Assembly (NCBI GenBank): GCA_964611875.1
Contig: CAZTBF010000002.1
Span: 184,439 to 248,438 of the forward strand
Length of the DNA stretch: 64,000 nucleotides
Direction of reading: 5' to 3'
Source of the DNA: an uncultured Gammaproteobacteria bacterium
Lineage (GTDB): Bacteria > Patescibacteriota > Patescibacteriia > UBA2169
In this document: one piece after another, positions 344-14,546 of the stretch
Position numbering within the stretch: position 1 is the stretch's first letter
Layout: the number at the start of each line of letters is the position of its first letter
Notes under the pieces: model-generated
Seen by the model: the letters and a program-made list of their open reading frames with translations, nothing else
Told to the model about the DNA's origin: nothing
The model's database searches: none
Translations under genes and position numbers: made by a program

Positions 344-421
344 GACTACGGATTACAGATCCTGTACAGATTTACGAATAAAAACATCTGTATATTCGTA
401 CTAGATCTGTAATCCGTAGTC
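344..421. repeat. 78-bp palindromic (MITE-like) element with GACTACGGATTACAGAT termini
   Basis: Left end GACTACGGATTACAGATC (344-361) is the reverse complement of GATCTGTAATCCGTAGTC (404-421). Related copies lie at 2552 and 19390. Confidence 0.8.
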
Positions 422-426
422 ATTAA

Positions 427-2544
427 TTATTTATAAGATTCTTTATTGTTATAGGTTTCTCTATAGGTATCATCAAACCGCTCTCCTGCGATAACACCTG
501 CATCTTTGTCGCATACCGGGCAGTAGTCATACTCTCCGGCGAGGTAGCCATGTACTGGGCAAATGGAGAAGGTTGGGGTGATGGTTATGTAGGGTAATCG
601 ATATTTGCTGAGTATGGTTTTGACTAAGGAGCCACAGGTTTGGGCATCGCTTAGGCGTTCGTTCATGTAGCAGTGGAGTACGGTGCCTCCGGTGTATTTT
701 GTTTGGAGCACATCTTGTTTATCTAATGCTTCAAATACATCGTCGGTGTAGCCTACGGGGAGTTGGGAGGAGTTGGTGTAGTAGGGGGCAGCTTGGGTTC
801 CTGCTTGGAGTATTTTGGGGAATCGCTTTTGATCTTCTTTTGCAAAGCGGTAGGTGGTGCCTTCGCCGGGGGTTGCTTCGAGGTTGTATAAATGGTCGCT
901 TTCTTCTTGGTATGCTATGAGTTTTTCTCGCATTACGTCCATAATGCGTTCTGCGAATTGTTGGCCCCATGGGGTTGCTATGGTTTCTGCGTCGTGCGTG
1001 AAATTGCGTATGGCTTCGTTTAATCCGTTTAACCCGATGGTTGAAAAGTGGTTGCGCAAATACCCAAGGTATCGTTTGGTAAAGGGGAATAATCCTTTAT
1101 CGATCCATTTTTGTATTTCTTTCCGTTTGAGTTCGAGCGAGGTGTAGGCTAAGTCCATAAGGTGTTCTATTCGTTCGGTAAAGGCTGCTTCATCGCCTGC
1201 GTGCATGTATCCTATGCGTGCCATATTTATGGTGACGACTCCTATGGAGCCGGTCATCTCGGCACTGCCAAAGAGTCCGCCTCCACGCTTTTTGAGTTGG
1301 TTTAAATCGAGTTGTAGCCTGCAACACATACTGCGTACATCGCCGGGGTTCATGTCGGAATTGATAAAGTTTTGAAAGTACGGGGTGCCATATTTTGCGG
1401 TCATTTCAAAGAGTGGCTTGGTGTTTGGATCGTCCCAATCAAAATCTTTGGTGATGTTGTAGGTTGGTATCGGAAAAGTGAAGGTTCTGCCTTTGGCGTC
1501 GCCGGTACTCATTACTTCTATAAATGCTCGGTTGATCATGTCCATTTCTTTTTGTAATTCCCCAAAGGTGTAGGGGAATGGCTCTCCGCCGAGGAGGAGT
1601 TTTTTTTCTCGTAGATCATTGGGGCATACCCAATCGAGTGTTATGTTGGTAAACGGTGTTTGAGTTCCCCAACGGGAGGGGATATTTAAATTGAATACAA
1701 ATGACTGAATATTTTGATACACGTAGTTATATGTTTTTTCTTGTATGTAGGTATGCATTGCCTCGTGTGTGGCAAATTGCATGTCGTGCTTTCGGATATC
1801 TTCTAACAATTCCATTTTGTATTTGCGTACAAAGGGTGCGAGGTAGGTATCAAAACTGGAGAATGCTTGTGCGCCTGCCCATTCGTTTTGGAGGGTACCT
1901 AAAAAGTTGACCATTTGGGCGACTGCTGAGCTTAAATGTTTTGGTGGGTGTGATTCTATTTTTTCGGGTACGCCGTTGAACCCTTCTTCCAGTAATGCGC
2001 GCAAGCTCCAGCCTGCGCAGTATCCTGAAAACATATCTAAATCATGGATATGCATGTCTGCGTTGCGGTGGGCGTCTCCTACATTTTTTGGATAGATATG
2101 TGAGAGCCAATAGTTTGCGGTCATTTTTCCTGAGGTGTTGAGGATCATTCCTCCAAGTGAGTAGCCTTGGTTTGCGTTTGCGGATACGCGCCAATCGAGC
2201 TTTTCTAGATATTCGGATATGGTTTTTTCTACTTCTACGACCACGTTTTTATCGCTTCTGCTTTCTGCTCGTTTGGTGCGGTATTGTATGTATGCTTTGG
2301 CGAGTTCTGGATAGTTGTGTGCGATGAGTACTTTTTCTACGACATCTTGTATGTCTTCTACTGTTGGTATGGTATCGGCATAGTGTTCTTCGAGTTGGGT
2401 GAGTACATGTTTGGTGAGGGTGTGTGCATGTATATCTTTTGTTTTGCCTATTGCGTGTATTGCTTTTTCTATTGCTCGTTCTATTTTGGTGAGGTCAAAG
2501 TCTACGATTGCGCCGTTGCGTTTTTGTATTTTGAGTAATGACAT
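427..2544 (-). CDS. nrdD: Class III ribonucleotide reductase NrdD, large fragment (705 aa) lacking the glycyl-radical loop
   Basis: N-terminal ATP-cone (KIQKRNGAIVDFDLTKIERAIEKA) and a long class III RNR core. The C-terminal end has CPVHGY..YCPVC (zinc ribbon half), then a TAA stop. Confidence 0.9.
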   Translation of the reverse strand: MSLLKIQKRNGAIVDFDLTKIERAIEKAIHAIGKTKDIHAHTLTKHVLTQLEEHYADTIPTVEDIQDVVEKVLIAHNYPELAKAYIQYRTKRAESRSDKNVVVEVEKTISEYLEKLDWRVSANANQGYSLGGMILNTSGKMTANYWLSHIYPKNVGDAHRNADMHIHDLDMFSGYCAGWSLRALLEEGFNGVPEKIESHPPKHLSSAVAQMVNFLGTLQNEWAGAQAFSSFDTYLAPFVRKYKMELLEDIRKHDMQFATHEAMHTYIQEKTYNYVYQNIQSFVFNLNIPSRWGTQTPFTNITLDWVCPNDLREKKLLLGGEPFPYTFGELQKEMDMINRAFIEVMSTGDAKGRTFTFPIPTYNITKDFDWDDPNTKPLFEMTAKYGTPYFQNFINSDMNPGDVRSMCCRLQLDLNQLKKRGGGLFGSAEMTGSIGVVTINMARIGYMHAGDEAAFTERIEHLMDLAYTSLELKRKEIQKWIDKGLFPFTKRYLGYLRNHFSTIGLNGLNEAIRNFTHDAETIATPWGQQFAERIMDVMREKLIAYQEESDHLYNLEATPGEGTTYRFAKEDQKRFPKILQAGTQAAPYYTNSSQLPVGYTDDVFEALDKQDVLQTKYTGGTVLHCYMNERLSDAQTCGSLVKTILSKYRLPYITITPTFSICPVHGYLAGEYDYCPVCDKDAGVIAGERFDDTYRETYNNKESYK

Positions 2545-2551
2545 ATTATAT

Positions 2552-2593
2552 GACTACGGATTACAGATTAAGTACAGATATACGAATGTATTG
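2552..2593. repeat. Half copy of the GACTACGGATTACAGAT element, 7 nt from the nrdD ATG
   Basis: GACTACGGATTACAGATTAAGTACAGATATACGAATG matches the left arm of the 344 and 19390 copies. No right arm follows. Confidence 0.6.
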
Positions 2594-2700
2594 CTCCCCT
2601 CCTGCCAAGGAGGGGCTGGGGGAGGTTATGTGAATACTTGTTGGTCATCACGAACCCCCTCCGGCTCCCCCTTAGCAAGGGGGAGAGTAAGAAGGAAGAC
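2594..2700. repeat. C-rich hairpin repeat module homologous to 52-143
   Basis: Hairpins CCCCTCC-TGCCAA-GGAGGGG and CTCCCCC-TTAGCAA-GGGGGAG. GGGGCTGGGGGAGGTT and CACGAACCCCCTCC parallel GGGGTAAGGGGGTGGTT and CACGAACCCTCCCC at the window start. Confidence 0.55.
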
Positions 2701-2727
2701 ACAAAAAGCTCACCTTGTGGGTGAGCT
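2701..2727 (-). terminator. Intrinsic terminator after the Com-like gene
   Basis: AGCTCAC/GTGAGCT stem followed on the minus strand by TTTTTGT. Confidence 0.6.
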
Positions 2728-2751
2728 TCTGGAGCTTCGACGTGTGTATGT

Positions 2752-2979
2752 TTAGTTGTTCTCTGCTGTATGCCGTACGCGGTTGGGGCAGGGGTATATC
2801 ATGCAGAGGTACTTATCTGCTGGTTCTCCGTGTATTTCTACGAGCTTTCCGCATCCCTTGCATTTTATCTCGACCACGCTTTCTATGAGTACTCCTTTGA
2901 ATAGTAATTTGCCGCATGAGCATCTGTGTTCTTGGTATCCGGTTCCCATATGTTGGGGGTTGAGTATTATGTGTACCAC
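2752..2979 (-). CDS. Small Com-like (phage Mu Com type) zinc-ribbon protein
   Basis: HRCSCGKLLFKG..EIKCKGCGKLVEI resembles the Mu Com CxxC..LLFK..IxCxxC pattern (from memory). Confidence 0.55.
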   Translation of the reverse strand: MVHIILNPQHMGTGYQEHRCSCGKLLFKGVLIESVVEIKCKGCGKLVEIHGEPADKYLCMIYPCPNRVRHTAENN

Positions 2980-3155
2980 TATATATTGTGGTATGTACTA
3001 GTATACTCCTGTGTATTTTTTTTTGCAAAATGATAGGTGGGTGGATAACTTTATTCTTGGTATATTTATTGACAAAAAGAAAATATTTATGATATTATAT
3101 TTTGTTCTTTATAATAATGTTTCAAAATTCACACTTACACGAAATGAGGTTATAG

Positions 3156-3758
3156 ATGAATTCTTCAGATCCTTCGTTTAAGAAACGTGTTATTCGTTTG
3201 GCTGAAGAGGGTGTTAATCCTGGTGTTATCAAGTGGCAAAGAGAAATGTCAATTCATTTTGTAGATTGTGCTGATGGTACTGTTGGTCAGTGGGAGGCCT
3301 TTCATGCCCCGACATTTGTGAAAACGGTATCTGTTGCAGCATTTACCTCTGAAGGAAAAATGATATTAGTTCGAATGTTTCGATTTCCTGTCAGATCTTG
3401 GTGTATTGATTTACCTGGTGGGGACAATAAAGAAGGTGAATCTCTTAAAGATGCTGTAATGCGCGAACTACTTGAAGAGACTGGATATGCAACGGATGGT
3501 CCTGTAGATATTTTATCAAGCGGATACATTAGTACTGCGCATACGAACGTGCCTCATCTCATTTTTTATGCTTCCAATTGTTTTATTGCCCAAGAACCTG
3601 TCCGAGATGCTATGGAGGTTGCCTCGGGTATGGAAGTTGTGCTTATGAGTCCTACTCAAATAATGAGGAATATTGCAAATCTAAAGAACACATATGGTTA
3701 TGGCCTTTCTCGTGCACTTTTACTTCTTTCGTATGGTGGTACGGTGAAATTTGAGTAG
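3156..3758 (+). CDS. NUDIX hydrolase
   Basis: Nudix box GDNKEGESLKDAVMRELLEETGY (Gx5Ex7REUxEExGU). Confidence 0.85.
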   Translation: MNSSDPSFKKRVIRLAEEGVNPGVIKWQREMSIHFVDCADGTVGQWEAFHAPTFVKTVSVAAFTSEGKMILVRMFRFPVRSWCIDLPGGDNKEGESLKDAVMRELLEETGYATDGPVDILSSGYISTAHTNVPHLIFYASNCFIAQEPVRDAMEVASGMEVVLMSPTQIMRNIANLKNTYGYGLSRALLLLSYGGTVKFE

Positions 3759-3764
3759 TTATTT

Positions 3765-3801
3765 CCTCTCTACTATATAATGGTAGGGGGGATTTTTTTT
3801 T
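3765..3801 (+). terminator. Intrinsic terminator after the NUDIX gene
   Basis: CCTCTCTAC..GTAGGGGGG stem (two G-U pairs) followed by a T9 run. Confidence 0.55.
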
Positions 3802-3837
3802 GCTCATTTCCCTATTTTCCTATACGCTCAATAGACT

Positions 3838-5100
3838 ATGGATCAAAAAACAGCGCTGAAAATGTTGAAATCTGGTAAGAATGTGTTTCTCACGGGCCCT
3901 GCGGGGAGTGGGAAGACGTTTGTGTTGCGTGAGTTTATTGAGCATTTAAAAAAGAAGAATATTAAGCATGCGGTTACAGCTTCTACGGGTATTGCTGCCA
4001 CGCATTTGGATGGTACTACTATTCACTCATGGTCTGGCATTGGGGCGAAGGAGGTGCTGAAGGGGCGTGAGTTGCAAAAGCTTGCGGATAATGAGCACGT
4101 GGCTGAGCGGTTTTTGGCGTGTGATGTGTTGATTATTGATGAGATTTCTATGATTGATGCGCGTACGCTGAATCTGATTGATGAGGTGTGTATGGCGGTG
4201 AAGCGGAGTGTGCAACCGTTTGGTGGGTTGCAGGTTGTTGTGTGTGGTGATTTTTTTCAATTGCCTCCGGTGCGGAGTGATCGCTCGAAACCTATTTTGG
4301 CGTATCATGCGGATTCGTGGAAGCGGGCTCATTTTCGGGTGTGTTATTTGGAGGAGCAGTTTCGGCATGAGGATGAGGTGTTTATGCAGGTGTTGAATGA
4401 TATTCGGCATAACACTACTTCTTATGAAACCGAGGAATTGTTGCAATCGCGCTATTTGCAACCTGTTTCGAGTGAGGTGTATACGACCAAATTATTTGCT
4501 CGGAATGCGGATGCGGATCAGGTGAATGAGTTGGAGCTTGAGCGGCTCGCGGGGGATGCGTGTGTGTACCGTATGCGGACCAAGGGTAAAAAGGATTTGG
4601 TTTCTCAATTGCAAAAGGATTTTAACAAGGTGCCGAGGGAGTTGGTGTTGAAGGTGGGGGCGTTGGTTATGTTTACGAAGAACAATTTTGAGTTTGGGTA
4701 TGTGAATGGCACGCTTGGTGAGGTGGTGGATTTTTGGGAGGATGATGAGGAGGTGTTGTTGCCTGTTGTCCGGTTACGTTCGGGTAAGCGGATTCATGTT
4801 GGGTATAGTAGTTGGTCCATGGAGCATAATGATCAGGTGGTGGCTTCGCTTATTCAGGTGCCTGTTCGGCTTGCGTGGGCGATTACGATTCACAAATCGC
4901 AGGGGATGACGCTTGATACGGCTGAGATTAATTTGGGGAATACGTTTGGACATGGTATGGGGTATGTGGCGCTTTCACGGGTGCGTTCTTTGGATACGTT
5001 GAATCTGACTGGTTTTTCTCGGCGGGCGCTTTCTGTTGATCCTGAGGTTTCTGAGGTTGATGTGGTGTTTCGGCGGTTGTCTGAGGGGAAGAAAAGTTGA
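3838..5100 (+). CDS. PIF1/RecD-like SF1B DNA helicase
   Basis: Motifs GPAGSGKTF (Walker A), IIDEISM, GDFFQLPPV, HKSQGMT and YVALSRV. Confidence 0.85.
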   Translation: MDQKTALKMLKSGKNVFLTGPAGSGKTFVLREFIEHLKKKNIKHAVTASTGIAATHLDGTTIHSWSGIGAKEVLKGRELQKLADNEHVAERFLACDVLIIDEISMIDARTLNLIDEVCMAVKRSVQPFGGLQVVVCGDFFQLPPVRSDRSKPILAYHADSWKRAHFRVCYLEEQFRHEDEVFMQVLNDIRHNTTSYETEELLQSRYLQPVSSEVYTTKLFARNADADQVNELELERLAGDACVYRMRTKGKKDLVSQLQKDFNKVPRELVLKVGALVMFTKNNFEFGYVNGTLGEVVDFWEDDEEVLLPVVRLRSGKRIHVGYSSWSMEHNDQVVASLIQVPVRLAWAITIHKSQGMTLDTAEINLGNTFGHGMGYVALSRVRSLDTLNLTGFSRRALSVDPEVSEVDVVFRRLSEGKKS

Positions 5101-5110
5101 AAAAAATTTT

Positions 5111-5140
5111 AACGGTCGCGATGGGTGACCGTTGATTTTA
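5111..5140 (+). terminator. Intrinsic terminator, AACGGTC..GACCGTT family
   Basis: AACGGTCGCGATGGGTGACCGTT followed by a T-rich tract. It is related to the terminators at 8402, 9385 and 10026. Confidence 0.6.
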
Positions 5141-5184
5141 GGGGCTAAAAAGGGTAGGGTTAGTATGTACGTAGCCTAAAATAT

Positions 5185-5535
5185 ATGTCTGATATTTCCC
5201 CTGTTTTAGAAAAATTACTTGCTTTTAGAAAGGAGAGGGATTGGGAGCAATTTCATAAGCCGAAGGATTTGGCTTTATCTTTGGTTTTGGAGGCTTCGGA
5301 GGTGTTGGAACATTTTCAATGGAAGACGACTGAGGAGATTGAGGAGTATGTGAAATCGAATAAGGATGATATTGCTGAGGAGTTGGCTGATGTGTTTAAT
5401 TGGGTTATTTTGCTTTCTCATGATTTGGGGATTGATGTTGTTGATGCTGCGCATAAGAAGATTGAGAAGAATGGGTTGAAGTATCCTGTTGGGAAAGTGA
5501 ATGGTAAGTCGGATAAGTATGATAGGTATGAATGA
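5185..5535 (+). CDS. MazG-like all-alpha nucleoside triphosphate pyrophosphohydrolase
   Basis: LVLEASEVLEHFQWK and EELADVFNWVILLSHDLGIDV are typical of small MazG/dCTPase-like proteins. Confidence 0.8.
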   Translation: MSDISPVLEKLLAFRKERDWEQFHKPKDLALSLVLEASEVLEHFQWKTTEEIEEYVKSNKDDIAEELADVFNWVILLSHDLGIDVVDAAHKKIEKNGLKYPVGKVNGKSDKYDRYE

Positions 5536-5695
5536 TGAGGTTTGATTCCGTATAACATGCTGATTTGGTGTGCTATACAAAAACATTCCGTATAATTTCT
5601 AGTTATATGAAATACGTGTTTTTCTCTTGGGCTACCGCCCGCTCTTAAAAATAATCTGATTTTGTTCCTTAATTATTTAAGGAGGGGAAAACAAG

Positions 5696-7021
5696 GTGTC
5701 TTCTCCGCTACGCTACGAAGATAAATTTAAAAATATGATCAAACAACAAATTAAGTCAATAAGAGTAAAAGAATTATGTTTGTGGACTGAAAATCCCAGA
5801 GATCCAATGGATCCAAAAGATACAGATTACAATATAATCAAGAAAGCTATTGCAGATGAAAGATCAAAATGGAATTTGCAAAAAATAGTTGCAGAAATGG
5901 GTACTCATTACGACCTGAGCGAGCTACCAACTGTCGTAAAACTAGATAAAAAATTTATAGTATTTGATGGAAACCGCAGAATTGCGGTGCTGAAATATTT
6001 ACAAGATGAAGAGTTGTATGGAAAATTGGGTGGCGGACTTTTTTTTAAAGAAGAGCCAAAAGAATTAAGAGAACAGTTGGAAGTTCCATGTAATTTATGC
6101 ACGAAGGAAGTTGCCCTTACTAACATTGAAAGGAAGCATGTTAATAATGGTTCATGGGGTCCTCTAGAAAGAGAATATTTTTTACATATTCACAGAGGTC
6201 ACAAAAAAAGTTTATTTTTAAAATTCGAAGAACAAACAGGTGGCGCAATAAGTAATCACCCAAAAATGAATCAGAGGGTAGTGAAAGAAGAATTGTTGAC
6301 TAAGAAAAACTTAGAGGAAATAGGAATAAGCTTCAATGAAGACGAAAAGCTTGTCTCGAACATTTCAAACAGCGACACAAAAAAAGTAATAGATAACATC
6401 ATATCCACTGTTGAAGACTCAAAAGCATTAACTAGAGGTGCAAATCGTGGAAAATTAAAAGAAACCATTTTGCAAGAGCATCCAGAGATGAAAGACAAAT
6501 TGAAACCTTTTGACGACACAAAAAATAAGCACGTTATCAAAATAAATAGCAACATTGACAATGTTAAACCTCCAAGGAAAACACCAAAAACGAACAGTAA
6601 AAAAATACTGTTCGAGAGAACACTTGTCTTAAAGTCCGGAGATGTTAATAATCTTTACGGTGCAATTTTAAACGTTTATAATAAACATAAAGATGATAAA
6701 GACGTATGGCCAATAATAGGCATGTCACTACGATTATTGCTTGATGTGGCAGCACGATCTCATTATGAAGAAATTCCTGGAGCAACAAAACAAGACAAAG
6801 ATGCAATATATAAAGATTTTCTAAAAAAAGCAAAAAAACAAATGACGGACAAAAAAAATATTAACTATCTATCACTCACAAATGATTGGCTATCAGACAA
6901 ACACTCAATGGATGGCATGTTGGCAAAATATGCTCACGGAAATATAACAACCAATCTGAGTGATATTTTATCTAACTCTTATATCATTTCAGACATTTTA
7001 GAATTCTACTTTAAAAAATAA
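5696..7021 (+). CDS. ParB/Srx-fold N-terminal domain protein with Lys-rich middle and helical C-terminal region (function unknown)
   Basis: GTG start 10 nt after GGAGG. ENPRDPMD and FIVFDGNRRIAVLKYL match ParB-like nuclease/NTPase domain motifs. The gene is very AT-rich. Confidence 0.7.
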   Translation: MSSPLRYEDKFKNMIKQQIKSIRVKELCLWTENPRDPMDPKDTDYNIIKKAIADERSKWNLQKIVAEMGTHYDLSELPTVVKLDKKFIVFDGNRRIAVLKYLQDEELYGKLGGGLFFKEEPKELREQLEVPCNLCTKEVALTNIERKHVNNGSWGPLEREYFLHIHRGHKKSLFLKFEEQTGGAISNHPKMNQRVVKEELLTKKNLEEIGISFNEDEKLVSNISNSDTKKVIDNIISTVEDSKALTRGANRGKLKETILQEHPEMKDKLKPFDDTKNKHVIKINSNIDNVKPPRKTPKTNSKKILFERTLVLKSGDVNNLYGAILNVYNKHKDDKDVWPIIGMSLRLLLDVAARSHYEEIPGATKQDKDAIYKDFLKKAKKQMTDKKNINYLSLTNDWLSDKHSMDGMLAKYAHGNITTNLSDILSNSYIISDILEFYFKK

Positions 7022-7024
7022 ATT

Positions 7025-7879
7025 ATGTTTTATTCCCCTTTACGGTATCCAGGTGGAAAAAATAAACTAGCAAAATTTATTGCCAAAATTTGTGTAAATA
7101 ACGAGATTGACGGACACTACGTTGAACCATATGCAGGTGGTGCTTCTGTTGCTCTTTATTTATTAATCGAACAAAAAGTTAAAAAAATTACCATCAATGA
7201 TTATGATCGATCGATTTATGCTTTTTGGCATTCAGTAGTAAAAAATACGAATAAACTTTGTCGTTTAATTTCAGAAACCGAAGTCAATACTGAAAATTGG
7301 TTAAAAGCAACTGAAATACAAAAAAACAAATCAAAAGCAAATCTTTTGGATCTAGGTTTTTCTACCCTCTTTCTCAACAGAACTAACATATCTGGAATAA
7401 TTAATGCTGGCATAATCGGTGGGATCAATCAAAAAGGTAAGTATAAAATGGATTGCCGTTTTAATAAAAATGAACTTATCAAAAGAATTAAATTAATATC
7501 AAAACACAAAAAACAGATTGAACTCTATAATCTCGATGCACTTGATCTAGTAAAAAAAATACAAAAAGAATCAAACAATAAAAAAACAATTTTTTATTTT
7601 GACCCTCCATACTACCTAAAAGGGTCGTCTTTGTATATGAACTATTACAATGACACTCAGCACAAAAAAGTTGCCAGCACTATTAAAGGCATAAAAAAAA
7701 TTAATTGGATAGTTTCATACGACAATACTCCACAAATAGAATCCATCTACAAATGGGTTTCCAAAAAAAGAATAAAAAAATATACATTCAACCACTCAGC
7801 ATACCGGGCAAGAGAGGGAAAAGAGATATTATTTTTTAGCAAAAATTTACTGACACCAAAAGCTGTTTTTAATATATAA
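7025..7879 (+). CDS. D12-class (Dam-like) N6-adenine DNA methyltransferase
   Basis: Motifs SPLRYPGGKNKL, EPYAGGASV and YFDPPYY. The ATG lies 3 nt after the upstream stop. Confidence 0.85.
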   Translation: MFYSPLRYPGGKNKLAKFIAKICVNNEIDGHYVEPYAGGASVALYLLIEQKVKKITINDYDRSIYAFWHSVVKNTNKLCRLISETEVNTENWLKATEIQKNKSKANLLDLGFSTLFLNRTNISGIINAGIIGGINQKGKYKMDCRFNKNELIKRIKLISKHKKQIELYNLDALDLVKKIQKESNNKKTIFYFDPPYYLKGSSLYMNYYNDTQHKKVASTIKGIKKINWIVSYDNTPQIESIYKWVSKKRIKKYTFNHSAYRAREGKEILFFSKNLLTPKAVFNI

Positions 7880-7883
7880 GAGA

Positions 7884-7936
7884 TTTTTTGCTTCGGGAAT
7901 TTACCCCTTTGATTCCCCTCTTCCCGAAGCAAAAAA
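7884..7936 (+). terminator. Long hairpin closing the ParB-like/Dam unit
   Basis: TTTTTTGCTTCGGGA (7884-7898) pairs with TCCCGAAGCAAAAAA (7922-7936) around a 23-nt loop. Confidence 0.5.
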
Positions 7937-8020
7937 GGAGAAAAAACAAAATACAGATTCATTTTTAAGAGTGCCTAAGAGTACTTAGGCAAGAGAGAAA
8001 AACCCGTACATCATATAACA

Positions 8021-8091
8021 CAGCGTATGCGGTTCGCGCTTGCCTGACGGCAAATGCTCACCCAAGTTGCTACGCAACTTCGCATACGCTG
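8021..8091. repeat. 71-nt three-stem palindromic element
   Basis: 11-bp outer stem CAGCGTATGCG/CGCATACGCTG encloses TTGCC-TGAC-GGCAA and AAGTTGC-TAC-GCAACTT hairpins. Confidence 0.5.
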
Positions 8092-8127
8092 GAACGTTAG
8101 CTGAAATACAATTAAGATTAAACTCAT

Positions 8128-8403
8128 ATGTCCCACCTCATAACCCTCCTAATAGGCCTCCTTATCGGCTACTCCATCGGACGTGAACATACGCCCAAGC
8201 CAACCAACTCAAAAGAATCACGCAAAGAAAAAATACTCGCACACCTCGAAGAAAACGAAAAAATAACCAATAACGAAGTAGAAGCATTACTCGGAGTAGG
8301 CGACACCACCGCATACAAATACCTCCAAGAACTCGAAGAAGCAGGCACCATCCAACAACACGGAGAAACAGGAAAATACGTCTATTACACCCTCAAAAAG
8401 TAA
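8128..8403 (+). CDS. Membrane-anchored winged-helix DNA-binding protein
   Basis: N-terminal TM (LITLLIGLLIGYSIG) followed by a wHTH-like segment (ITNNEVEALLGVGDTTAYKYLQELEEAGTI). Confidence 0.7.
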   Translation: MSHLITLLIGLLIGYSIGREHTPKPTNSKESRKEKILAHLEENEKITNNEVEALLGVGDTTAYKYLQELEEAGTIQQHGETGKYVYYTLKK

Positions 8404-8430
8404 CGGTCACCCATGTGACCGTTAACTTTT
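8402..8430 (+). terminator. Intrinsic terminator AACGGTCACCCATGTGACCGTT plus T-run
   Basis: Perfect stem. The 28-nt string TAACGGTCACCCATGTGACCGTTAACTTTT is repeated identically at 9384-9411. Confidence 0.75.
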
Positions 8431-8597
8431 TTAAAGAGAAACTTTGTATTCATCTTAAGCATTTTGGTGTAAAAATTAGCTAATATAAGCATAATTAAAA
8501 ACATATTGCTTGCTTTTTTTGTTGTTTTATGATATAGTATAAAGTAACAAAAATCGTACAAAGGTAGTTTAAAATCCATTTTTTAGGAGGTGTTTTA

Positions 8598-9341
8598 ATG
8601 AAACACACGTCTTTTAGTATCATGATTATTCTGTTATTGGTACCGTTTATTGGGTGCACATTGAACAACTCTGTAGGGCCAAATGATGTTGATTTTCAAC
8701 ACCATCAACCAGCTGCAAAAGTGGTTGCCAAGGACTCACCACCTGCATGGATTGCTTTTCGTGTAGTTGATTCGAATGGCAAACCAGTGAATGGAGTCGA
8801 AGTTCGTTTTGGCAACAGTGTTGCTGGAAGACCATTTCAGTGGGCAGTTGGAGCAACTACCATTTTTGAAGGTATTGCTTCACTGGAGTTTCATGTATGG
8901 GAATATTTGCCCTACAATAGTGGCATGTATCAATATGTGATGTTGTATAAAGGAAAAGAGATTGATAAAGGACATAGTCTGCCCTTGAATGCCGGTCGCA
9001 TGACTGAAGTTCAATTTGAAATTGGTAACGGGTGGAAAATTTTAGATGAGTATCCACTTGGGCAAAAACCAATTCCAGTCCTGCGTCGTGATACTGAAGA
9101 GGAAATCATTTTTTCATTTTTGTTGAATGATCATAAACATTCCAATTATGAGCTATTTGCTGATTGGGCAAAAACTGGAGATTTTGCAGTTGAAGAGTAT
9201 ATGAGTATGCAGGTTAATTATATACTCTATAAAACACGTGGTACGTTTGTACTTCCTGCAGAAGCGATTGGCCGTGTTCGTGTAACACTTATTGATACAA
9301 CAAGTGTTGGACCAATCCAAACAATGTTCATTGATTTATAG
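8598..9341 (+). CDS. Putative lipoprotein, function unknown
   Basis: AGGAGG SD; signal peptide with lipobox LVPFIG-C. Confidence 0.75.
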   Translation: MKHTSFSIMIILLLVPFIGCTLNNSVGPNDVDFQHHQPAAKVVAKDSPPAWIAFRVVDSNGKPVNGVEVRFGNSVAGRPFQWAVGATTIFEGIASLEFHVWEYLPYNSGMYQYVMLYKGKEIDKGHSLPLNAGRMTEVQFEIGNGWKILDEYPLGQKPIPVLRRDTEEEIIFSFLLNDHKHSNYELFADWAKTGDFAVEEYMSMQVNYILYKTRGTFVLPAEAIGRVRVTLIDTTSVGPIQTMFIDL

Positions 9342-9349
9342 ATACAGAG

Positions 9350-9413
9350 CCCCTTTCACAGGATGTGAGAGGGGTTGTTTTTTTAACGGTCACCCATGTG
9401 ACCGTTAACTTTT
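9350..9413 (+). terminator. Tandem intrinsic terminators
   Basis: CCCCTTTCACA..TGTGAGAGGGG plus T-run, then AACGGTCACCCATGTGACCGTT plus T-run. Confidence 0.7.
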
Positions 9414-9511
9414 TATGCTAAAAACCATCTCTAGACAGAAAATACAAAGTATACTATACTTGTTTGTTTCAATCGTTCGTTTTATTCCCCTTCATAGAAA
9501 AGAGGTTTGCA

Positions 9512-9892
9512 ATGGCTAGGAATTCATTAGTAGATAAATTTCCAGACGGAGGGCGGTGGTTTCTTATGTTTGAAATTTGCTGCCACACCGAGATAATATA
9601 TTCGCATCCGTCTCGAAAAACTTTCATACGTATAGACCATAGAGTAAAAAAATACGAAACAGCACTAAAAAGGGCAACAAAAGTATGGTACGAGGTAATA
9701 GTTCCGGCAGCTGAAAAAAGAGAATTGTCTGTAGTGCTGCCCACTTTGGTGTTTGGGGGGTATATATTATTAGACGAATGGCATGAAAAACGCTTTGCAG
9801 AAAGACCTCCATTAACCCAGATTGGATCAGATGAAAAAGTAAAATTGCTCATGGATCAGCTAGAGGAAGATCTTATAGGAGGGAGCTATTAA
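9512..9892 (+). CDS. Hypothetical protein
   Basis: ATG at 9512 is preceded by AAGAGG, and a terminator follows at 9901. The ORF track start at 9464 is less likely. Confidence 0.55.
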   Translation: MARNSLVDKFPDGGRWFLMFEICCHTEIIYSHPSRKTFIRIDHRVKKYETALKRATKVWYEVIVPAAEKRELSVVLPTLVFGGYILLDEWHEKRFAERPPLTQIGSDEKVKLLMDQLEEDLIGGSY

Positions 9893-9900
9893 TTTACCTG

Positions 9901-9935
9901 ATCGGTCTACTTATACAGTAGATCGATTTTTTTTA
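9901..9935 (+). terminator. Intrinsic terminator
   Basis: ATCGGTCTACT..AGTAGATCGAT stem plus T8. Confidence 0.7.
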
Positions 9936-10132
9936 TAGAAAAGTTAGATTGTTTATTTTTGGTATACAATACATATTAAAAAGAACATCATCGTATTAGT
10001 AAGCACACTTACACTCATAACAGCTGGTCACATAGGGTGACCGTTACCTTTTTTATACATTGACAACACCCCCACACAAGCGTACCATAGCAAACACCAA
10101 AACGTTCATTCCAAAAAAACAAAGGAGCAACC

Positions 10133-10546
10133 ATGCCCTTATTCTTTTATCGGTTGTACGAAAAACATCCCGCACGAATTATAGCCGTTGGCTTATTGGC
10201 ACTTGCAATATTCATAACCTATATTTCGTTCGTTACTGTATCAAAACAGTTTAACGTAATGACAAGTATTATAATGGTAGTAATTTTCTGGTTTATAATG
10301 GTAATAGGGTGTTCACGATTACAGATACCCAACCGAAATCACGATTATAGTTTATTCGAAGAAATATTTGCTGAAATGGTAATGGACACCCATGCAGAGC
10401 GAATATTTTTGTTAAAGTTGTGGGGGATTAGGAATAACGGATACCGCCGTTTTTCATGTGGATTGGTATTGTACTTGGTCATTAAACCAATACAAAAAGT
10501 GTTCAACATCGTCCTACGCAAAATCAGACGCTACACCCAGAGATAA
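10133..10546 (+). CDS. Small integral membrane protein, function unknown
   Basis: AAAGGAG SD 6 nt upstream; two or three hydrophobic helices. Confidence 0.65.
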   Translation: MPLFFYRLYEKHPARIIAVGLLALAIFITYISFVTVSKQFNVMTSIIMVVIFWFIMVIGCSRLQIPNRNHDYSLFEEIFAEMVMDTHAERIFLLKLWGIRNNGYRRFSCGLVLYLVIKPIQKVFNIVLRKIRRYTQR

Positions 10547-10605
10547 TATACTCTGGGATTTTTTTATAAAAAAACCTTTGTATTTCTACAAAGGTTATAT
10601 TGTTA

Positions 10606-11193
10606 TTATACAACTCCCGCATCTTTGCGAAGCAACGGCATAAATCCAAGGCATCCTTTTTTGTATACCAAGAGTTGATATATGCAGTACCCATTCTCAA
10701 CTCGATCGTTACCGTACATGATACCAGGAATGTAGTCTTGTGTGTCGTTTTTCTCTACACCTTCAGGATGGATAGAAACAATAGTTCCAGAAATATGATC
10801 AAAATGACCGGTGGTATCAAGGTTTATCAACTCCATACCCACTGCAATCTTGCCCTCATCAATAAGTTTCAGAAATTGGCGATAGGTAATTCTGTGCTTC
10901 ATGCATACAGCAGTGTATGGAGATTCTTTGAAGGCTTCTTCTTCCGAAAGAACTTTCACTAAGGGGTGGCATAACTGTGGAATGCGAATCATGTTCATAT
11001 CAACAATGGTATTGTTGATCCAAAATAGCTGTATATTATGCATATTAAAAGGACTTCGAATAAACCAACCATGTTTTTCTTCATCCCCTTTGTTTGCCAC
11101 CTTCCAAATACGATTATTTGCATCACGAATTTCGTCACCAATGGAAAGAGTATTCCATTGATCTTGTGTAATAGATGTTTCGGGAGTATCCAT
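10606..11193 (-). CDS. Hypothetical protein (195 aa)
   Basis: Long ORF and last gene of a three-gene minus-strand unit. No motif recognised. Confidence 0.6.
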   Translation of the reverse strand: MDTPETSITQDQWNTLSIGDEIRDANNRIWKVANKGDEEKHGWFIRSPFNMHNIQLFWINNTIVDMNMIRIPQLCHPLVKVLSEEEAFKESPYTAVCMKHRITYRQFLKLIDEGKIAVGMELINLDTTGHFDHISGTIVSIHPEGVEKNDTQDYIPGIMYGNDRVENGYCIYQLLVYKKGCLGFMPLLRKDAGVV

Positions 11194-11297
11194 TATCTAC
11201 ATCTCCTATACCAGCTTGGTTAAAAGGATATAAAAAGAACACTATTGTATATCATTATATCTATGAGTTGTCAAAAGATAAAAAAATCCCCCATGAA

Positions 11298-11810
11298 TCA
11301 TGAGGGAGGAACAATCGGTTTTGGACTAATTTTTACATTAATCACATCTTCAATAGGAATACAGTACAATGTGTTATCAATACTTACAGATTGAAGAACA
11401 AACGAAGTACATACCTTTACTGGGGAGGTACTGTTTTGTTCTTGTAGTGCTTGTTCTGTTTTTTGAGAAGCAATCAATGCTCCATAACATGTATGTGTAA
11501 GCAACACTCGTTCGCCAGCAGAAAAATGAATGTCATGATCAAAATTGATAAGATCATCCGTGAGTAATTTTCTTCTCAAGACAGTAAAAAACATATTGCC
11601 AGTCAACTCAAGAGCCAATTGGTTCCATTGTCGAATAGCAGTATCACGCACCTGCGTAAGAGCATTAAACTCAGGTGTAGATGCTGGAGAGAGTCCCATA
11701 ATCTCTGCCTGATTAAGAAATGTCCATTCCTGAATAATGCGATGAGCAAACCTGAAAAGATCCTTTTTCTTTTTTGGATACAGGTGAATAAAGTCATCAT
11801 ACTGTTTCAT
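11298..11810 (-). CDS. Hypothetical protein (170 aa)
   Basis: Long ORF starting 12 nt downstream of the 86-aa ORF stop. No motif recognised. Confidence 0.6.
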   Translation of the reverse strand: MKQYDDFIHLYPKKKKDLFRFAHRIIQEWTFLNQAEIMGLSPASTPEFNALTQVRDTAIRQWNQLALELTGNMFFTVLRRKLLTDDLINFDHDIHFSAGERVLLTHTCYGALIASQKTEQALQEQNSTSPVKVCTSFVLQSVSIDNTLYCIPIEDVINVKISPKPIVPPS

Positions 11811-11822
11811 TGGAATACTCCT

Positions 11823-12083
11823 TTACACAATAGGCAAGTCAGATCCTTCTTGTAATGCTTCTACCGCTTGTTTCCTGAGTTCAAAATCATGCTGGATAAT
11901 AAAATGAAATTCTGTAGCCAGTTGATCGCTCCCCAAAATATAACCAATATTAGCACCACCAATGATGCATGTTTTTCCTGCTCGTTCTTCAGCACGAGCA
12001 AGAATAGTATCATGTGGTTCGGTTACTTTATCTGGATATTTTTCTAAATAAGCACTAATTGTTGAAAGAGCATACATATGCAC
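11823..12083 (-). CDS. Hypothetical protein (86 aa)
   Basis: First ORF of the minus-strand unit. No motif recognised. Confidence 0.5.
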   Translation of the reverse strand: MHMYALSTISAYLEKYPDKVTEPHDTILARAEERAGKTCIIGGANIGYILGSDQLATEFHFIIQHDFELRKQAVEALQEGSDLPIV

Positions 12084-12156
12084 CTCCCTTAATAGGTATG
12101 TGTCATAATCGAATTACCTATGTTGTATCCTAGATACCTTTTTTGGTCAAGCAGTA

Positions 12157-12185
12157 TTGCACCAAACGCCAGTATTTAGTATGCT
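12157..12185 (+). promoter_or_regulatory. Sigma70-like promoter of the SET gene (TTGCAC-17-TATGCT)
   Basis: The -10 ends 8 nt before the ATG at 12194 and there is no SD. Confidence 0.45.
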
Positions 12186-12193
12186 AAACACTC

Positions 12194-12607
12194 ATGAAAA
12201 AAGCAGGACGACCAAAACAACAACCCAAAAAAGTAGCAGTAAAACGATCCAAAGCAGGACTCGGATTATTTGCGGAAGAAGATATCAAACGAGATGAGTT
12301 CATCATAGAATACACCGGCGAACTCCTCACCACCGAAGAATCAGACGACCGACCAAATAAATACCTGTTCGAAGTAAACAGCCGATGGACCATAGACGGC
12401 AGCCCACGCAGCAACATCGCGCGCTACATCAACCACTCATGCAGGCCAAATTGTGAACCCGATATTTTTGGACACAAAATAAAAATCTACGCCATAAAAA
12501 ATATTAAAGCAGGGGAAGAGCTCGGGTACGATTACGGTAAAGACCACTGGAACGAATACATAAAACCTCATGGGTGTAAATGTGTGAAATGTAGTGAAAA
12601 AAAATAG
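12194..12607 (+). CDS. SET-domain protein lysine methyltransferase
   Basis: NHSCRPNC, GEELGYDYG and a C-terminal CKCVKC post-SET-like cluster. Confidence 0.85.
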   Translation: MKKAGRPKQQPKKVAVKRSKAGLGLFAEEDIKRDEFIIEYTGELLTTEESDDRPNKYLFEVNSRWTIDGSPRSNIARYINHSCRPNCEPDIFGHKIKIYAIKNIKAGEELGYDYGKDHWNEYIKPHGCKCVKCSEKK

Positions 12608-12705
12608 CCCAACAAGGGTAAGTAGTCGAGAAACAAAAAGACGTGTATGATATACATAGCTATTAAACGCACTCTCTAGCCCCCCGCAGGGGAATCTCTT
12701 ATCCT

Positions 12706-13560
12706 ATGCCAGATAAATTTAATGCAACCTGGGTCTCCCATTCATCAATAAGTGACTACCTTATATGCCCGCGCGCATACTATTTGAAAAACGTATATAA
12801 GGACCCACAAAGCAATCACAAAATAACCCTCATCACTCCAGCATTAGCGCTCGGCCAAACCGTGCACGAGATTTTGGAATCCTTGTCCGTATTACCCGTG
12901 CAAGAACGCGTACTCGCAAACTTAGTACCACAGTTCCAAAAAGCGTGGGAAAAAGTAAGCGGAGAAAAAGGAGGATTCACCAGTGTTTCGCAAGAAAAAA
13001 AATATAAAGAACGCGGAGAAGAAATCATGCGACGAGTGTTCAACAACCCTGGACCACTCAAGCATAAAGCTGTAAAAGTGCAAAAAGATTTGCTCTGGTA
13101 CTGGCTTTCGGAAGAAGATGAAATTATATTATGCGGAAAAATAGACTGGATGGAATATTTGGAACAAAGCGACGCCGTGCATATTATAGATTTTAAAACA
13201 GGGCAACACAAAGAAACCAACTCCATGCAGTTGCCGATTTATTATTTGCTCGCCACACACTCCCAAAAACGAAACGTGCAAAAAATGAGCTACTGGTATG
13301 TAGCGCTCGAAGACACCTTAACCGAACTCGAGTTGCCCAATATAGAAGAAGCACAAAAACAAGTGCTCGAAATAGCACGGAAAATAAAACTCGCACGCAC
13401 CCTCGAAAAATTTACCTGCCCGAAAAATGGGTGCAGAGCATGCGAACCATTTGAACGCATTATACAAGGAGAAGGAAAACTGGTAGCAACGGATGATTTT
13501 AATCGTGATCAGTATATTTTGCCAGACGCACCGGAAGAAGACGCAGAAGTAATTTTGTAA
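12706..13560 (+). CDS. Cas4/AddB-type PD-(D/E)XK nuclease with four-Cys cluster (stand-alone)
   Basis: N-terminal Cys (YLICPRAYYL), GKIDWME, IIDFKTG, QLPIYY and C-terminal CPKNGCRAC. Confidence 0.8.
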   Translation: MPDKFNATWVSHSSISDYLICPRAYYLKNVYKDPQSNHKITLITPALALGQTVHEILESLSVLPVQERVLANLVPQFQKAWEKVSGEKGGFTSVSQEKKYKERGEEIMRRVFNNPGPLKHKAVKVQKDLLWYWLSEEDEIILCGKIDWMEYLEQSDAVHIIDFKTGQHKETNSMQLPIYYLLATHSQKRNVQKMSYWYVALEDTLTELELPNIEEAQKQVLEIARKIKLARTLEKFTCPKNGCRACEPFERIIQGEGKLVATDDFNRDQYILPDAPEEDAEVIL

Positions 13561-13561
13561 T

Positions 13562-13828
13562 ATGCCGAAAAGACTCAGCTCCGTAACCGTACGTTGCAGA
13601 TGTGGCATGGAGTTATTTAAGTATCACAAAATGGGAACCGGAAGATTAGTAAAATGTTATCAATCCCGCATTACGCAGGACAACATAGGAGCAACACAAT
13701 CAAAAGAAAATGGGGAGGAGGTGTTGTGCCCCACATGCACCGCACGCATTGCAACCATACAGATGATAACAGGCAAGCCCGCTCTAAAGTTAAATCAAGG
13801 GCAAATACAGAATATTCATATACATTAA
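13562..13828 (+). CDS. Small zinc-ribbon protein (second Com-like CxCG..LFK protein)
   Basis: VRCRCGMELFKY and LCPTCTARI. Starts 1 nt after the nuclease stop. Confidence 0.55.
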   Translation: MPKRLSSVTVRCRCGMELFKYHKMGTGRLVKCYQSRITQDNIGATQSKENGEEVLCPTCTARIATIQMITGKPALKLNQGQIQNIHIH

Positions 13829-13829
13829 T

Positions 13830-14267
13830 ATGGCAAATCAAAATAAAACCAAACCAACCAAAATCAGTGTTTCTGCATACATACAAACACTTGATACCCC
13901 TGAGCAAAAAAAAGATGTTAAAACGATTATACAACTTTGGAAAGAGATTACTCCGTACAAACCAAAGATATGGGGAGAGAGTATTATTGGCTTTGGTGAG
14001 TATCACTATAAATACAAATCTGGCCGAGAGGGAGATTTCTTTTTAGTAGGGGCATCGGCACGCAAACAAAGCCTTACCATATATGCTATGAATGGCTGGG
14101 AAGAGTACAAGGCATTGCTTAAAAAACTTGGACCACATAAACTTGGTTCATCGTGTTTATATATAAAAAAAATAGAGGCAATACATCTACCAACCTTAAA
14201 ACAGTTGATGAAAAAAGCATACAAAGATACGTATGCATATATCAAAAAGGAGCATACGTTACAGTAG
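13830..14267 (+). CDS. DUF1801/YdhG-like protein
   Basis: Overall YdhG-like pattern (AYIQTL..KKDVKTIIQLWKEIT). Starts 1 nt after the upstream stop. Confidence 0.65.
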   Translation: MANQNKTKPTKISVSAYIQTLDTPEQKKDVKTIIQLWKEITPYKPKIWGESIIGFGEYHYKYKSGREGDFFLVGASARKQSLTIYAMNGWEEYKALLKKLGPHKLGSSCLYIKKIEAIHLPTLKQLMKKAYKDTYAYIKKEHTLQ

Positions 14268-14318
14268 GTAAAAGAGAGTATGTAATTCTAACGTTCTTTT
14301 AGTAGGAGGTACTGCACC

Positions 14319-14483
14319 ATGAGTAAACAACCCGTGGATCAGATACAATCAAAAAAAGATGACAATACAACTTCATCTCCATTAATACAGTTGCCACCAG
14401 ACAAATTACAAGAATACCATAATTTGATAAAGTGGCAGTTAGATTCTGCATACACTATTCGTGATTATTGTATTAATACCTAA
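14319..14483 (+). CDS. Small hypothetical protein (54 aa, below ORF-track cutoff)
   Basis: AGGAGG lies 9 nt upstream of the ATG. Translation is MSKQPVDQIQSKKDDNTTSSPLIQLPPDKLQEYHNLIKWQLDSAYTIRDYCINT. A hairpin plus T8 follows. Confidence 0.45.
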   Translation: MSKQPVDQIQSKKDDNTTSSPLIQLPPDKLQEYHNLIKWQLDSAYTIRDYCINT

Positions 14484-14515
14484 CCTGCACAATATGTGCT
14501 GGTTTTTTTTATAAC

Positions 14516-14545: not shown

Positions 14546-14546
14546 A

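Follow-up and report, generated by a model that had tools for sequence, protein, structure and literature searches.

The subject of this work is a pair of co-directional plus-strand genes in a 64,000-nucleotide (nt) stretch of contig CAZTBF010000002.1 (GenBank assembly GCA_964611875.1, positions 184,439 to 248,438), which we refer to as the window and number from its first letter. The pair, located in a chromosome of the Parcubacteria group of the Patescibacteria, consists of a gene for a ParB-like protein (gene A) and a gene for a D12-class N6-adenine DNA methyltransferase (MTase; gene B) and is probably a divergent, intact anti-phage defense cassette of the PD-λ-5 family; membership in that family, taken by itself, is very likely. 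The polynucleotide phosphorylase of the host is 66–72% identical to those of named members of the Patescibacteria/Parcubacteria group. An earlier note on this DNA had proposed a restriction–modification (R-M)-like or other defense/addiction module, a proposal supported by the placement of both genes in the PD-λ-5 family and by the conservation of their pairing. The pair is a kind of system already described and validated, and novelty is unsupported, given that standard PADLOC models recognize the pair. Its components are listed below, with gene A residues numbered here and throughout from the GTG codon of the 441-residue frame.

5563 to 5734, plus strand: upstream leader, with AGGAGG at 5680–5685 and an open frame from GTG 5696 (13 codons, MSSPLRYEDKFKN)
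5735 to 7021, plus strand: gene A, PD-Lambda-5_A-type, 428 residues from ATG (441 if GTG 5696 is used)
5744 to 6025, plus strand: predicted ParB/Srx (ParB-CTPase-fold) N-terminal domain of gene A, residues ≈17–110, from Foldseek matches and invariant columns
6053 to 6481, plus strand: middle helical domain of gene A, residues ≈120–262, with invariant C132, C135, ERKH (145–148), W154, and R159
6482 to 6625, plus strand: Lys-rich linker of variable length, residues ≈263–310, with a conserved RKTP motif
6626 to 7018, plus strand: C-terminal six-helix domain of gene A, residues 311–441, weakly HEPN/DUF4145-like
7022 to 7024, plus strand: 3-nt spacer (ATT) between the stop codon TAA and the next ATG
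7025 to 7879, plus strand: gene B, predicted D12-class (Dam-like, alpha-type order) N6-adenine DNA MTase, PD-Lambda-5_B-type (PF02086, 3.7e-22)
7884 to 7936, no strand: inverted repeat with perfect 16-bp arms and a 21-nt loop, 5 nt past the gene B stop codon

Assignment of the pair to the PD-λ-5 family

The two open reading frames (ORFs) and the 3-nt gap described in the earlier note agree with the ORF list and with a check of the sequence; the first ORF runs from 5696 or 5735 to 7021 (441 residues from the GTG at 5696) and the second from 7025 to 7879 (284 residues from an ATG). Each of the motifs quoted there, ENPRDPMD, FDGNRRIAVLKYL, and LAKYAHGN in gene A and SPLRYPGGK, EPYAGGASV, and YFDPPYY in gene B, was located in the translations. 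Both genes are recognized as PD-λ-5 by standard PADLOC models. For gene B, PDLC04018 (PD-Lambda-5_B) matches along the entire length at 2.5e-115 and outscores all generic MTase models, and gene A matches 20 PD-Lambda-5_A models (best 1.8e-14) and no other family, with PDLC03998 covering residues 18–389. All 47 gene A homologues sampled likewise match PD-Lambda-5_A models only (21 models), and no other ParB-containing defense family.

PD-λ-5 came to light through a functional selection in Escherichia coli ECOR7 (Vassallo et al. 2022, Nat Microbiol; PMC9519451). The pair broadly protects E. coli against phages, best against T-even phages; it also restricts unmodified λvir and T7, and it needed cloning in an mrr-deleted host (PMC9519451). 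These authors labeled the genes "ParB/HEPN, methyltransferase" and the system "RM+Abi" (Abi, abortive infection), and the HEPN label rests on a DUF4145 HHpred match of only 35.6% probability (PMC9519451). Like the prototype, which PADLOC and DefenseFinder list as PD-Lambda-5, the window pair combines a ParB-N protein that has a weakly HEPN/DUF4145-like C terminus with a D12 N6-methyladenine (m6A) MTase, in the same gene order and with a tight junction. Unlike the prototype, window gene A has 428 rather than 501 residues and is ≈23–31% identical where alignable, its C-terminal homology is not statistically secure, and the pair, known from sequence, lies in a Patescibacteria chromosome rather than in an enterobacterial P2-type prophage hotspot.

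A tblastn search with gene A against annotated phages and plasmids gave no match, and loci resembling the E. coli prototype were reached by using the gene B MTase as a stepping-stone query into complete E. coli genomes. One such locus (L088, strain NCTC9008) lies in a P2-like prophage hotspot between replication endonuclease and portal genes and encodes a 501-residue hypothetical protein and an MTase over 2,460 bp, compared with 2,461 bp in the table of Vassallo et al.; its A protein matches PDLC03998 at 5e-168. In another (L089, a lambdoid prophage), the MTase is convergent with a protein annotated as "ParB/Srx family N-terminal domain-containing." Gene B is 44% identical to the L088 MTase and 48% identical to the PD-λ-5-type MTase of a further E. 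coli locus, L081. BLASTP aligns gene A with the L088 A protein at the N terminus (31% identity over 93 residues, E = 4e-6) and at the C terminus (27% over 84 residues, E = 0.007), the latter alignment placing R346 on R402 and H414 on H473, with a similar spacing of 68 residues in the window protein and 71 in the E. coli prototype. A profile of the window family aligned by hhalign with an E. coli-type profile built from 27 sequences gives 98% probability (E = 2.9e-13) over 213 columns, a region that corresponds to gene A residues 17–235 and thus takes in the ParB domain and the whole middle domain. When the C-terminal domains are compared with each other by hhalign, R/R and H/H fall in register, weakly (E = 0.03, 1.6% probability). 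An alignment of the C-terminal profile with the whole prototype profile was spurious and missed this correspondence.

To place the pair in its genomic context, we examined 80 loci fetched from the 145 stretches that encode a gene A relative in a species-representative genome set. These loci come from Patescibacteria, Bacteroidota, Spirochaetota, Alpha- and Gammaproteobacteria, and Actinomycetota, as well as from archaea of the DPANN lineages Pacearchaeota, Woesearchaeota, and Nanoarchaeota. A gene-B-like MTase adjoins the gene A homologue in all 78 loci that have room for one, at ≤300 bp in 70 of them; in 13 loci, the MTase is convergent with the gene A homologue, an arrangement found in Alphaproteobacteria, Coriobacteriia, and E. 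coli L089. Gene A and gene B are obligately linked across phyla. The earlier note had named two outcomes that would tell against it, a match of the 441-residue protein to a well-characterized nondefense family and a lack of synteny in other genomes; no such match was found, and the pair is syntenic in 78 of 78 testable loci. Over these loci, the MTase (34–79% identity) is better conserved than gene A (32–60%), and an exhaustive profile search returns 937 clusters at 50% identity with E ≤ 1e-3 and 150 with E ≤ 1e-30.

The pair is a self-contained mobile cassette. Its neighbors in the window (genes for NUDIX, Pif1-like helicase, MazG-like, and winged helix-turn-helix [wHTH] proteins) are not co-conserved with it, and the flanks of the closest relatives are unrelated to one another, the cassette being found beside pheST, within an R-M cluster, or among hypothetical genes. 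A search for att-like direct repeats around the cassette or around the 2.4–16.2-kb region gave chance-level matches only. In a 70%-identical relative (L084, positions 1213–6150), the cassette stands directly 3′ of another R-M-like cluster, which comprises an N6_N4 MTase, an IceA-like protein, a helix-turn-helix (HTH) protein, and another D12 MTase, this one of the MNYIGSK type, whose gene stops 4 nt short of the ParB-like gene; the region looks like a defense or R-M island.

Domain architecture and boundaries of the cassette

The full-length AlphaFold2 model of gene A has a predicted local distance difference test (pLDDT) score of 85.4. Structure prediction and Foldseek bear out the ParB-like N-terminal domain described in the earlier note and place it, on the basis of the model, in the ParB/Srx (ParB-CTPase fold) superfamily. 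The matches in the Protein Data Bank (PDB) include Noc (7nfu_A, E = 2.2e-3, probability 1.0), the ParB CTPases 7bnr, 7bnk, and 6sdk, the pNOB8 ParB N-terminal domain 5k5d, and sulfiredoxin 6ky4, with probabilities of 0.8–1.0 and E-values of 2e-3 to 5e-2 overall; the BFVD viral library adds seven matches at E ≤ 1e-3, the best at 8.9e-6, nearly all of which carry the name ParB/Sulfiredoxin or ParB/Spo0J-HTH. Pfam ParBc is undetected in the gene A sequence, so the ParB/Srx assignment rests on structure. Two N-terminal motifs are invariant, ENPR (32–35) and DGNRR (91–95), the second resembling Box II, or the P-motif, and the prototype aligns NPRF and EGNRR to them. The Box II Arg is required for nucleotide binding in ParB-CTPase-fold proteins, which bind CTP, ATP, or GTP (PMC12704722), and GNRR of gene A corresponds to this motif.

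Foldseek aligns gene A with Noc/ParB and with phage "ParB/Spo0J HTH" proteins over ≈270–336 columns, past the N-terminal domain, and therefore the helical domain that follows also appears ParB-like; in the model, it is the likely equivalent of the ParB HTH/DNA-binding region. The hhalign alignment to the E. coli family includes IERKH against VxLKH in this domain, and GNRR and KH motifs are common to the window and E. coli families. The linker that follows has pLDDT below 50 at residues 288–300 and is gap-rich and variable in the family alignment, with T296 invariant.

The C-terminal domain, modeled separately as residues 304–441 (pLDDT 90.2, pTM 0.86), has N318, Y321, R346 (in MSLRLL), H414 (in KYAHG), and S428 as invariant residues. 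The model finds no significant fold match (E ≥ 1.2). All matches that superpose reasonably (TM-score 0.38–0.51, root-mean-square deviation 5.5–6.4 Å) are HEPN proteins (5yep_C, 8xeh_D, 4nqf_B, 7bxo_D, and 6m6w_H), and globin matches have a TM-score of ≈0.2. The HEPN motif Rx4-6H is absent from the domain, in which the only invariant Arg and His, R346 and H414, are 68 residues apart and the residues directly before H414 are L-A-K-Y-A. An HEPN-like fold is therefore plausible but unproven for this model, which agrees with the wording of the earlier note that the C terminus is only vaguely HEPN/DUF4145-like. Gene A has no Pfam or NCBIfam match even at E ≤ 10, a scan of 47 homologues reveals no consistent Pfam family and no ParBc, DUF262, or HEPN domain, and a sequence-profile search of the PDB returns nothing for the full-length profile and only noise for the C-terminal profile.

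Gene B is, as judged from its sequence, a catalytically intact D12 N6-adenine DNA MTase of the PD-Lambda-5_B clade, which bears out the complete D12-class enzyme of the earlier note (PF02086, 3.7e-22). All 11 sequences compared keep PLRYPGGK, EPYAGGA (motif I), and DPPYY (motif IV) unchanged. Gene B also scores 3.7e-92 on the PADLOC Type II MTase model and falls below the TIGR00571 Dam cut-off (66.9 versus 114.85 bits), from which we conclude that it is not a Dam equivalog.

The earlier note had gene A begin at a strong Shine–Dalgarno (SD)-GTG start. The elements themselves are present, with AGGAGG located 10 nt 5′ of GTG 5696; the comparative data favor ATG 5735 as the conserved start, and the conserved gene A product is the 428-residue form. 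Three observations carry this assignment. Database gene calls and all sampled homologues start at the M14 equivalent, as do nearly all members of a set of at least 984 homologues. The relatives have upstream in-frame stops: the equivalent GTG frame in L082 and L083 meets TAA 12 nt before the ATG, and L082/L083 and L084 have an in-frame stop 12–18 nt 5′ of the conserved ATG without an alternative start. Finally, residues 1–9 of the gene A model are disordered. The GTG extension is at best window-specific. The leader DNA aligns with that of an 80%-identical relative (L082) from ≈5563 to the ATG and not with L084 or L086, a sigma-70-like promoter was not found on the plus strand of 5563–5734, and the RNA fold of the leader is unremarkable (z = −1.9). 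As a separate observation, the GTG-initiated leader at 5696–5734 encodes MSSPLRYEDK, which echoes the D12 MTase N terminus MFYSPLRYPGGK with different synonymous codons, and the same stretch in L082 has decayed to FSSFRCEND-stop; the leader may be the scar of an MTase gene start. Its origin as a remnant of an L084-like upstream MTase was rejected, as that MTase is of a different subtype and begins MNYIGSK.

The junction between the two genes has no SD sequence. Its pattern, TTTAAAAAATAA-N(1-5)-ATGTTTTAT, is conserved and common to L082, L084, and L086, and is compatible with coupling by termination–reinitiation. Public sequencing runs that might bear on expression or operon structure were looked for, and none is listed.

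The earlier note had called the unit compositionally foreign on the basis of G + C counts in 60-nt samples, and a recount gives exactly the same values, 19/60 and 12/60 for the pair and 28/60 and 29/60 for flanking genes. The pair is the lowest-GC stretch of its length (2184 bp) in the window, at 0.314 compared with a mean of 0.400 (SD 0.023), with 0.08% of such stretches as low. The GC content at third codon positions (GC3) is host-like, however, at 0.28 for gene A and 0.25 for gene B, compared with 0.23–0.35 for housekeeping genes (polynucleotide phosphorylase [PNPase] 0.26, leucyl-tRNA synthetase [LeuRS] 0.27), and the flanking genes used as comparators are themselves atypically GC-rich (GC3 0.53 for the Pif1-like helicase, 0.48 for the wHTH gene). 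The shortfall comes from the first and second codon positions, and the low GC of the pair follows from proteins rich in Lys (14%), Asn (7–9%), and Ile (8–11%). The cassette is thus compositionally distinct, and a recent foreign origin is not proven by GC alone.

The hairpin with which the earlier note closed the cassette is present at 7884–7936, with 16-bp arms rather than the 15-bp stem given there, and folds with ΔG = −21 kcal/mol (z = −3.4; none of 200 shuffles folds as well). Its role as a cassette boundary lacks comparative support, the hairpin being absent downstream of the cassette in the three closest relatives (L082, L084, and L086). Its U6 and A6 runs lie inside the stem, neither strand has a free U-tail, and a terminator scan passes over it. 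On these grounds, and with the arm unique within the window, the reading as a canonical or repeated terminator was rejected. The hairpin is a real structure that is no conserved part of the cassette, and it may act as a local transcription stop. Rfam gave no match for the untranslated regions of the cassette or for the structured element downstream.

Proposed mechanism and rival explanations

For the mechanism, we slightly favor R-M-like logic. The MTase would place m6A on host DNA at a short motif, thereby marking self; the ParB-like protein would bind DNA in a nucleotide-dependent manner through its ParB N-terminal domain and HTH module and would tell apart unmarked incoming DNA; and nucleic acid would then be damaged, either by the ParB/Srx active site or by the HEPN-like C-terminal domain with its R...H pair. 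In support, the MTase motifs are invariant, conservation is higher in the MTase than in gene A, which is the usual pattern in R-M pairs, and convergent gene pairs occur, as tolerated in Type II R-M systems. The pair resembles a Type II R-M system in that a stand-alone, intact DNA MTase has an obligate second protein as its partner, in co-directional or convergent orientation, in that the MTase is the better conserved of the two, and in that the pair enters unrelated sites as one cassette. It differs in that the partner has no recognizable restriction-endonuclease fold (searches of Pfam, NCBIfam, and PDB with gene A and 47 homologues), carries a predicted ParB-CTPase-fold domain that implies nucleotide-dependent behavior, and is encoded first, with a 3-nt gap.

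Modular relatives of the cassette bear on the same question. In six loci (L001, L010, L006, L030, L036, and L050), a gene of ≈520 codons lies between gene A and the MTase. Its product is an OLD-family-like ABC-ATPase with a Toprim domain (AAA_15/AAA_21 in Pfam; ATPase-Toprim_I-B, GajA-like, and PtuA-like in PADLOC). Three E. coli loci at e14-type and P2-type prophage sites (L081, L087, and L090) combine the same MTase clade with such an ATPase and have no ParB gene; the E. coli and inserted ATPases are 30% identical over their full length (E = 3e-63), and the PADLOC models matched do not name the ATPase–MTase pair as a system. Coordinates of these genes are as follows.

L001, 1498 to 3066: inserted OLD-like gene
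L010, 7320 to 8894: inserted OLD-like gene
L081, 4024 to 5757: E. coli OLD-like ATPase gene
L087, 1476 to 3185: E. coli OLD-like ATPase gene
L090, 4013 to 5710: E. coli OLD-like ATPase gene

These arrangements suggest swappable or stacked effectors around one marking enzyme, as R-M-like logic predicts. Immediately downstream of the three-gene variant in L001 lies a reverse transcriptase (RT) gene on the minus strand (3995–5197; RVT_1, 1.2e-20), possibly a retron-type or other RT-based defense gene.

Several points weigh against a defense cassette of this kind or against its R-M-like operation. Measured activity comes from E. coli, and our literature search found no published PD-λ-5 mechanism. 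In gene A, no canonical nuclease domain (PD-(D/E)XK, HNH, GIY-YIG, or PLD) is detectable, and the C-terminal HEPN assignment is not significant (Foldseek E ≥ 1.2, no Rx4-6H motif, hhalign E = 0.03). Gene A precedes the MTase and is apparently co-translated with it, an order ill suited to a classical R-M system on its entry into a naive host. Avoidance of an MTase target motif is not visible in the window, where palindrome counts are uninformative, with only CTAG depleted and GATC at expectation. Finally, the prototype acts best on T-even phages, whose glucosyl-hydroxymethylcytosine DNA resists most classical restriction enzymes (PMC9519451).

A further reading, which we offer tentatively and regard as well below an even prospect, is that PD-λ-5-type gene A proteins are ParB-style nucleotide-gated DNA clamps that read the adenine-methylation state and work with an interchangeable killing module. 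Gene A would load on or slide along DNA, and killing would fall to the C-terminal R...H bundle, to the OLD-type ATPase-Toprim protein, or to both, an idea that fits the existence of variants composed of A + MTase, A + OLD-like + MTase, and OLD-like + MTase. If true, this would define a distinct restriction class built on a ParB-CTPase switch and not on a helicase or translocase motor. Gene A shares with the ParB/Noc CTP-dependent clamps matches to the N-terminal CTPase fold and the helical DNA-binding region and a conserved GxRR-type P-motif; unlike them, it has no ParA partner, no C-terminal dimerization domain, and no similarity at the level of Pfam ParBc, and it is linked to an MTase.

An Abi component, or a purely Abi mechanism, is a live rival. 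An Abi or toxin–antitoxin-like module, in which gene A would be a latent toxin (an HEPN-like RNase, or a ParB/Srx nucleoside triphosphate [NTP]-degrading or nicking activity) activated by a phage cue and the MTase mainly an antidote or sensor, seems to us unlikely, although it is the strongest of the alternatives. EcoprrI-PrrC and similar systems are "R-M + Abi" pairs, in which an HEPN-type suicide nuclease is tied to an R-M module. Vassallo et al. interpret PD-λ-5 in the same terms, using "RM+Abi" for the system and "ParB/HEPN" for gene A, and HEPN/DUF4145 domains attached to R-M systems have been described (Anantharaman et al. 2013, as cited in PMC9519451). Unlike EcoprrI-PrrC, the window pair would have both functions share one 428-residue protein with a putative HEPN domain, and the two-gene form has no ABC-ATPase domain. 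Among fold matches of the C-terminal domain, HEPN toxins of HEPN-MNT pairs are the only ones with reasonable geometry, the effector-first and tightly coupled gene order resembles the stoichiometric co-expression of toxins and antitoxins, and the prototype is strongest against T-even phages with restriction-resistant DNA. These points are offset by an HEPN assignment that has no statistical support and no canonical Rx4-6H, by convergent, separately transcribed pairs that are common here and atypical for toxin–antitoxin systems, and by catalytic MTase motifs that are kept in all variants and, with the mrr-deleted cloning host, imply real DNA methylation. On the favored reading, the cassette would be a compact R-M-like system, possibly with an Abi-type second activity.

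Modification-dependent (Type IV-like) restriction, with gene A attacking modified phage DNA and the MTase in a separate or protective role, is improbable. ParB-superfamily N-terminal domains head known Type IV enzymes (PMC12839542), and the prototype is strongest against hypermodified T-even phages. The effector of the cassette shares this ParB/Srx-superfamily nucleotide-binding heading with GmrSD, BrxU, and SspE, in which a ParB-like DUF262 domain is joined to a DUF1524 HNH domain (PMC12839542). Yet neither gene A nor any of the 47 homologues has a DUF262 or DUF1524/HNH signal, and the PADLOC models of GmrSD, BrxU, and SspE are unmatched. Those enzymes target modified DNA and work without a cognate MTase, whereas an MTase is present in 78 of 78 PD-λ-5-type loci, and the prototype also restricts unmodified λvir and T7.

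More improbable still is a nondefense epigenetic module in which a ParB-like DNA- or NTP-binding regulator, comparable to DndB or IbrB, controls or reads a Dam-like methylase. DndB, which regulates a DNA modification system, does belong to the ParB superfamily, UniRef gives one relative of the E. coli protein the name "IbrB-like-binding regulator", and gene A has a middle domain that is similar to the ParB HTH region. The E. coli prototype, however, has a direct anti-phage phenotype, some variants have an OLD-type nuclease-ATPase inserted or substituted, and the patchy spread over unrelated phyla, in prophage hotspots, satellites, integrative and conjugative elements, and R-M clusters, is the pattern of defense cargo and not of core regulation. 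Phage-encoded fusions of a ParB-CTPase fold to a DNA MTase (PMC12704722) likewise tie the two activities together on mobile elements; they are single polypeptides with N6_N4 or SAM-MTase domains and a suspected anti-defense role, unlike the two proteins, D12 MTase, and defense phenotype of PD-λ-5. A chromosome or plasmid partition ParB that lies beside an orphan Dam methylase by chance is effectively refuted, since, although ParB, Noc, and Spo0J lead the structural matches, gene A has the MazG-like gene and the MTase as neighbors and adjoins neither ParA nor another partition gene (no search for parS was made), Pfam ParBc, HTH, and dimerization-domain matches are absent, the C terminus is a different six-helix domain, and the strict linkage is to an MTase and not to ParA.

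Other features of the window and significance of the family

The cassette lies within a region of the window (≈400–16,000) to the left of a tRNA-His/tRNA-Arg pair (14,547–14,927) and a tyrosine recombinase gene on the minus strand (15,010–16,005). Its genes encode NrdD, NUDIX, Pif1/RecD-like helicase, MazG-like, wHTH/DUF977, and PD-(D/E)XK/Cas4-like nuclease proteins, several with a GC3 of 0.42–0.53, compared with 0.23–0.35 in the rest of the window; the region could be an integrated element or mosaic island that hosts the cassette. The gap that separates the cassette from the wHTH gene at 8128 contains, on the plus strand (8021–8091), a GC-rich 71-nt element that forms a very stable three-way junction with an 11-bp closing stem (CAGCGTATGCG/CGCATACGCTG) and two internal hairpins; in a 96-nt context, it has ΔG = −37.7 kcal/mol and z = −4.5, with none of 200 shuffles as stable. 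The 71-nt element occurs only once in the window, has no Rfam match, and is not a tRNA. Two neighboring genes are each followed by an identical copy of a 31-nt palindromic, terminator-like sequence, TAACGGTCACCCATGTGACCGTTAACTTTTT, at 8401–8431 and 9384–9414, and related GGTCxC...GTGACCGTT hairpins occur at 5114–5133, after the Pif1-like gene, and at 10,026–10,045; together, they are a repeated terminator or repetitive extragenic palindrome (REP)-like family distinct from the cassette hairpin.

Further repeats and unusual genes are spread over the window. Inverted copies of the GACTACGGATTACAGAT type (339–427, 2547–2590, and 19,385–19,538) lie on either side of nrdD and ahead of the PNPase gene, a 65-nt repeat (89% identity) follows two distant genes (16,000–16,064 and 46,165–46,229), and a 115-nt duplication (80% identity) at 52,179–52,599 carries two tRNA-Met genes. 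The LeuRS ORF (27,924–31,121, 1065 residues) has an inserted alpha/beta-hydrolase (Ser_hydrolase/Abhydrolase_1) domain at residues ≈237–389, and a single 3,064-residue ORF occupies 34,560–43,754 on the plus strand.

The cassette reveals no new kind of system, the prototype having been validated in 2022. Its interest lies in a PD-λ-5 family that is very large, with 937 clusters at 50% identity, that reaches ultra-small Patescibacteria and DPANN archaea, and that combines a strict linkage of ParB-like protein and MTase across phyla with modular relatives that carry an OLD-type ATPase-Toprim protein. The invariant GNRR P-motif, ERKH, C132/C135, R346, and H414, together with the compact 428-residue variant, are targets for mutagenesis and structural work, which could show whether a ParB-CTPase switch can drive restriction.

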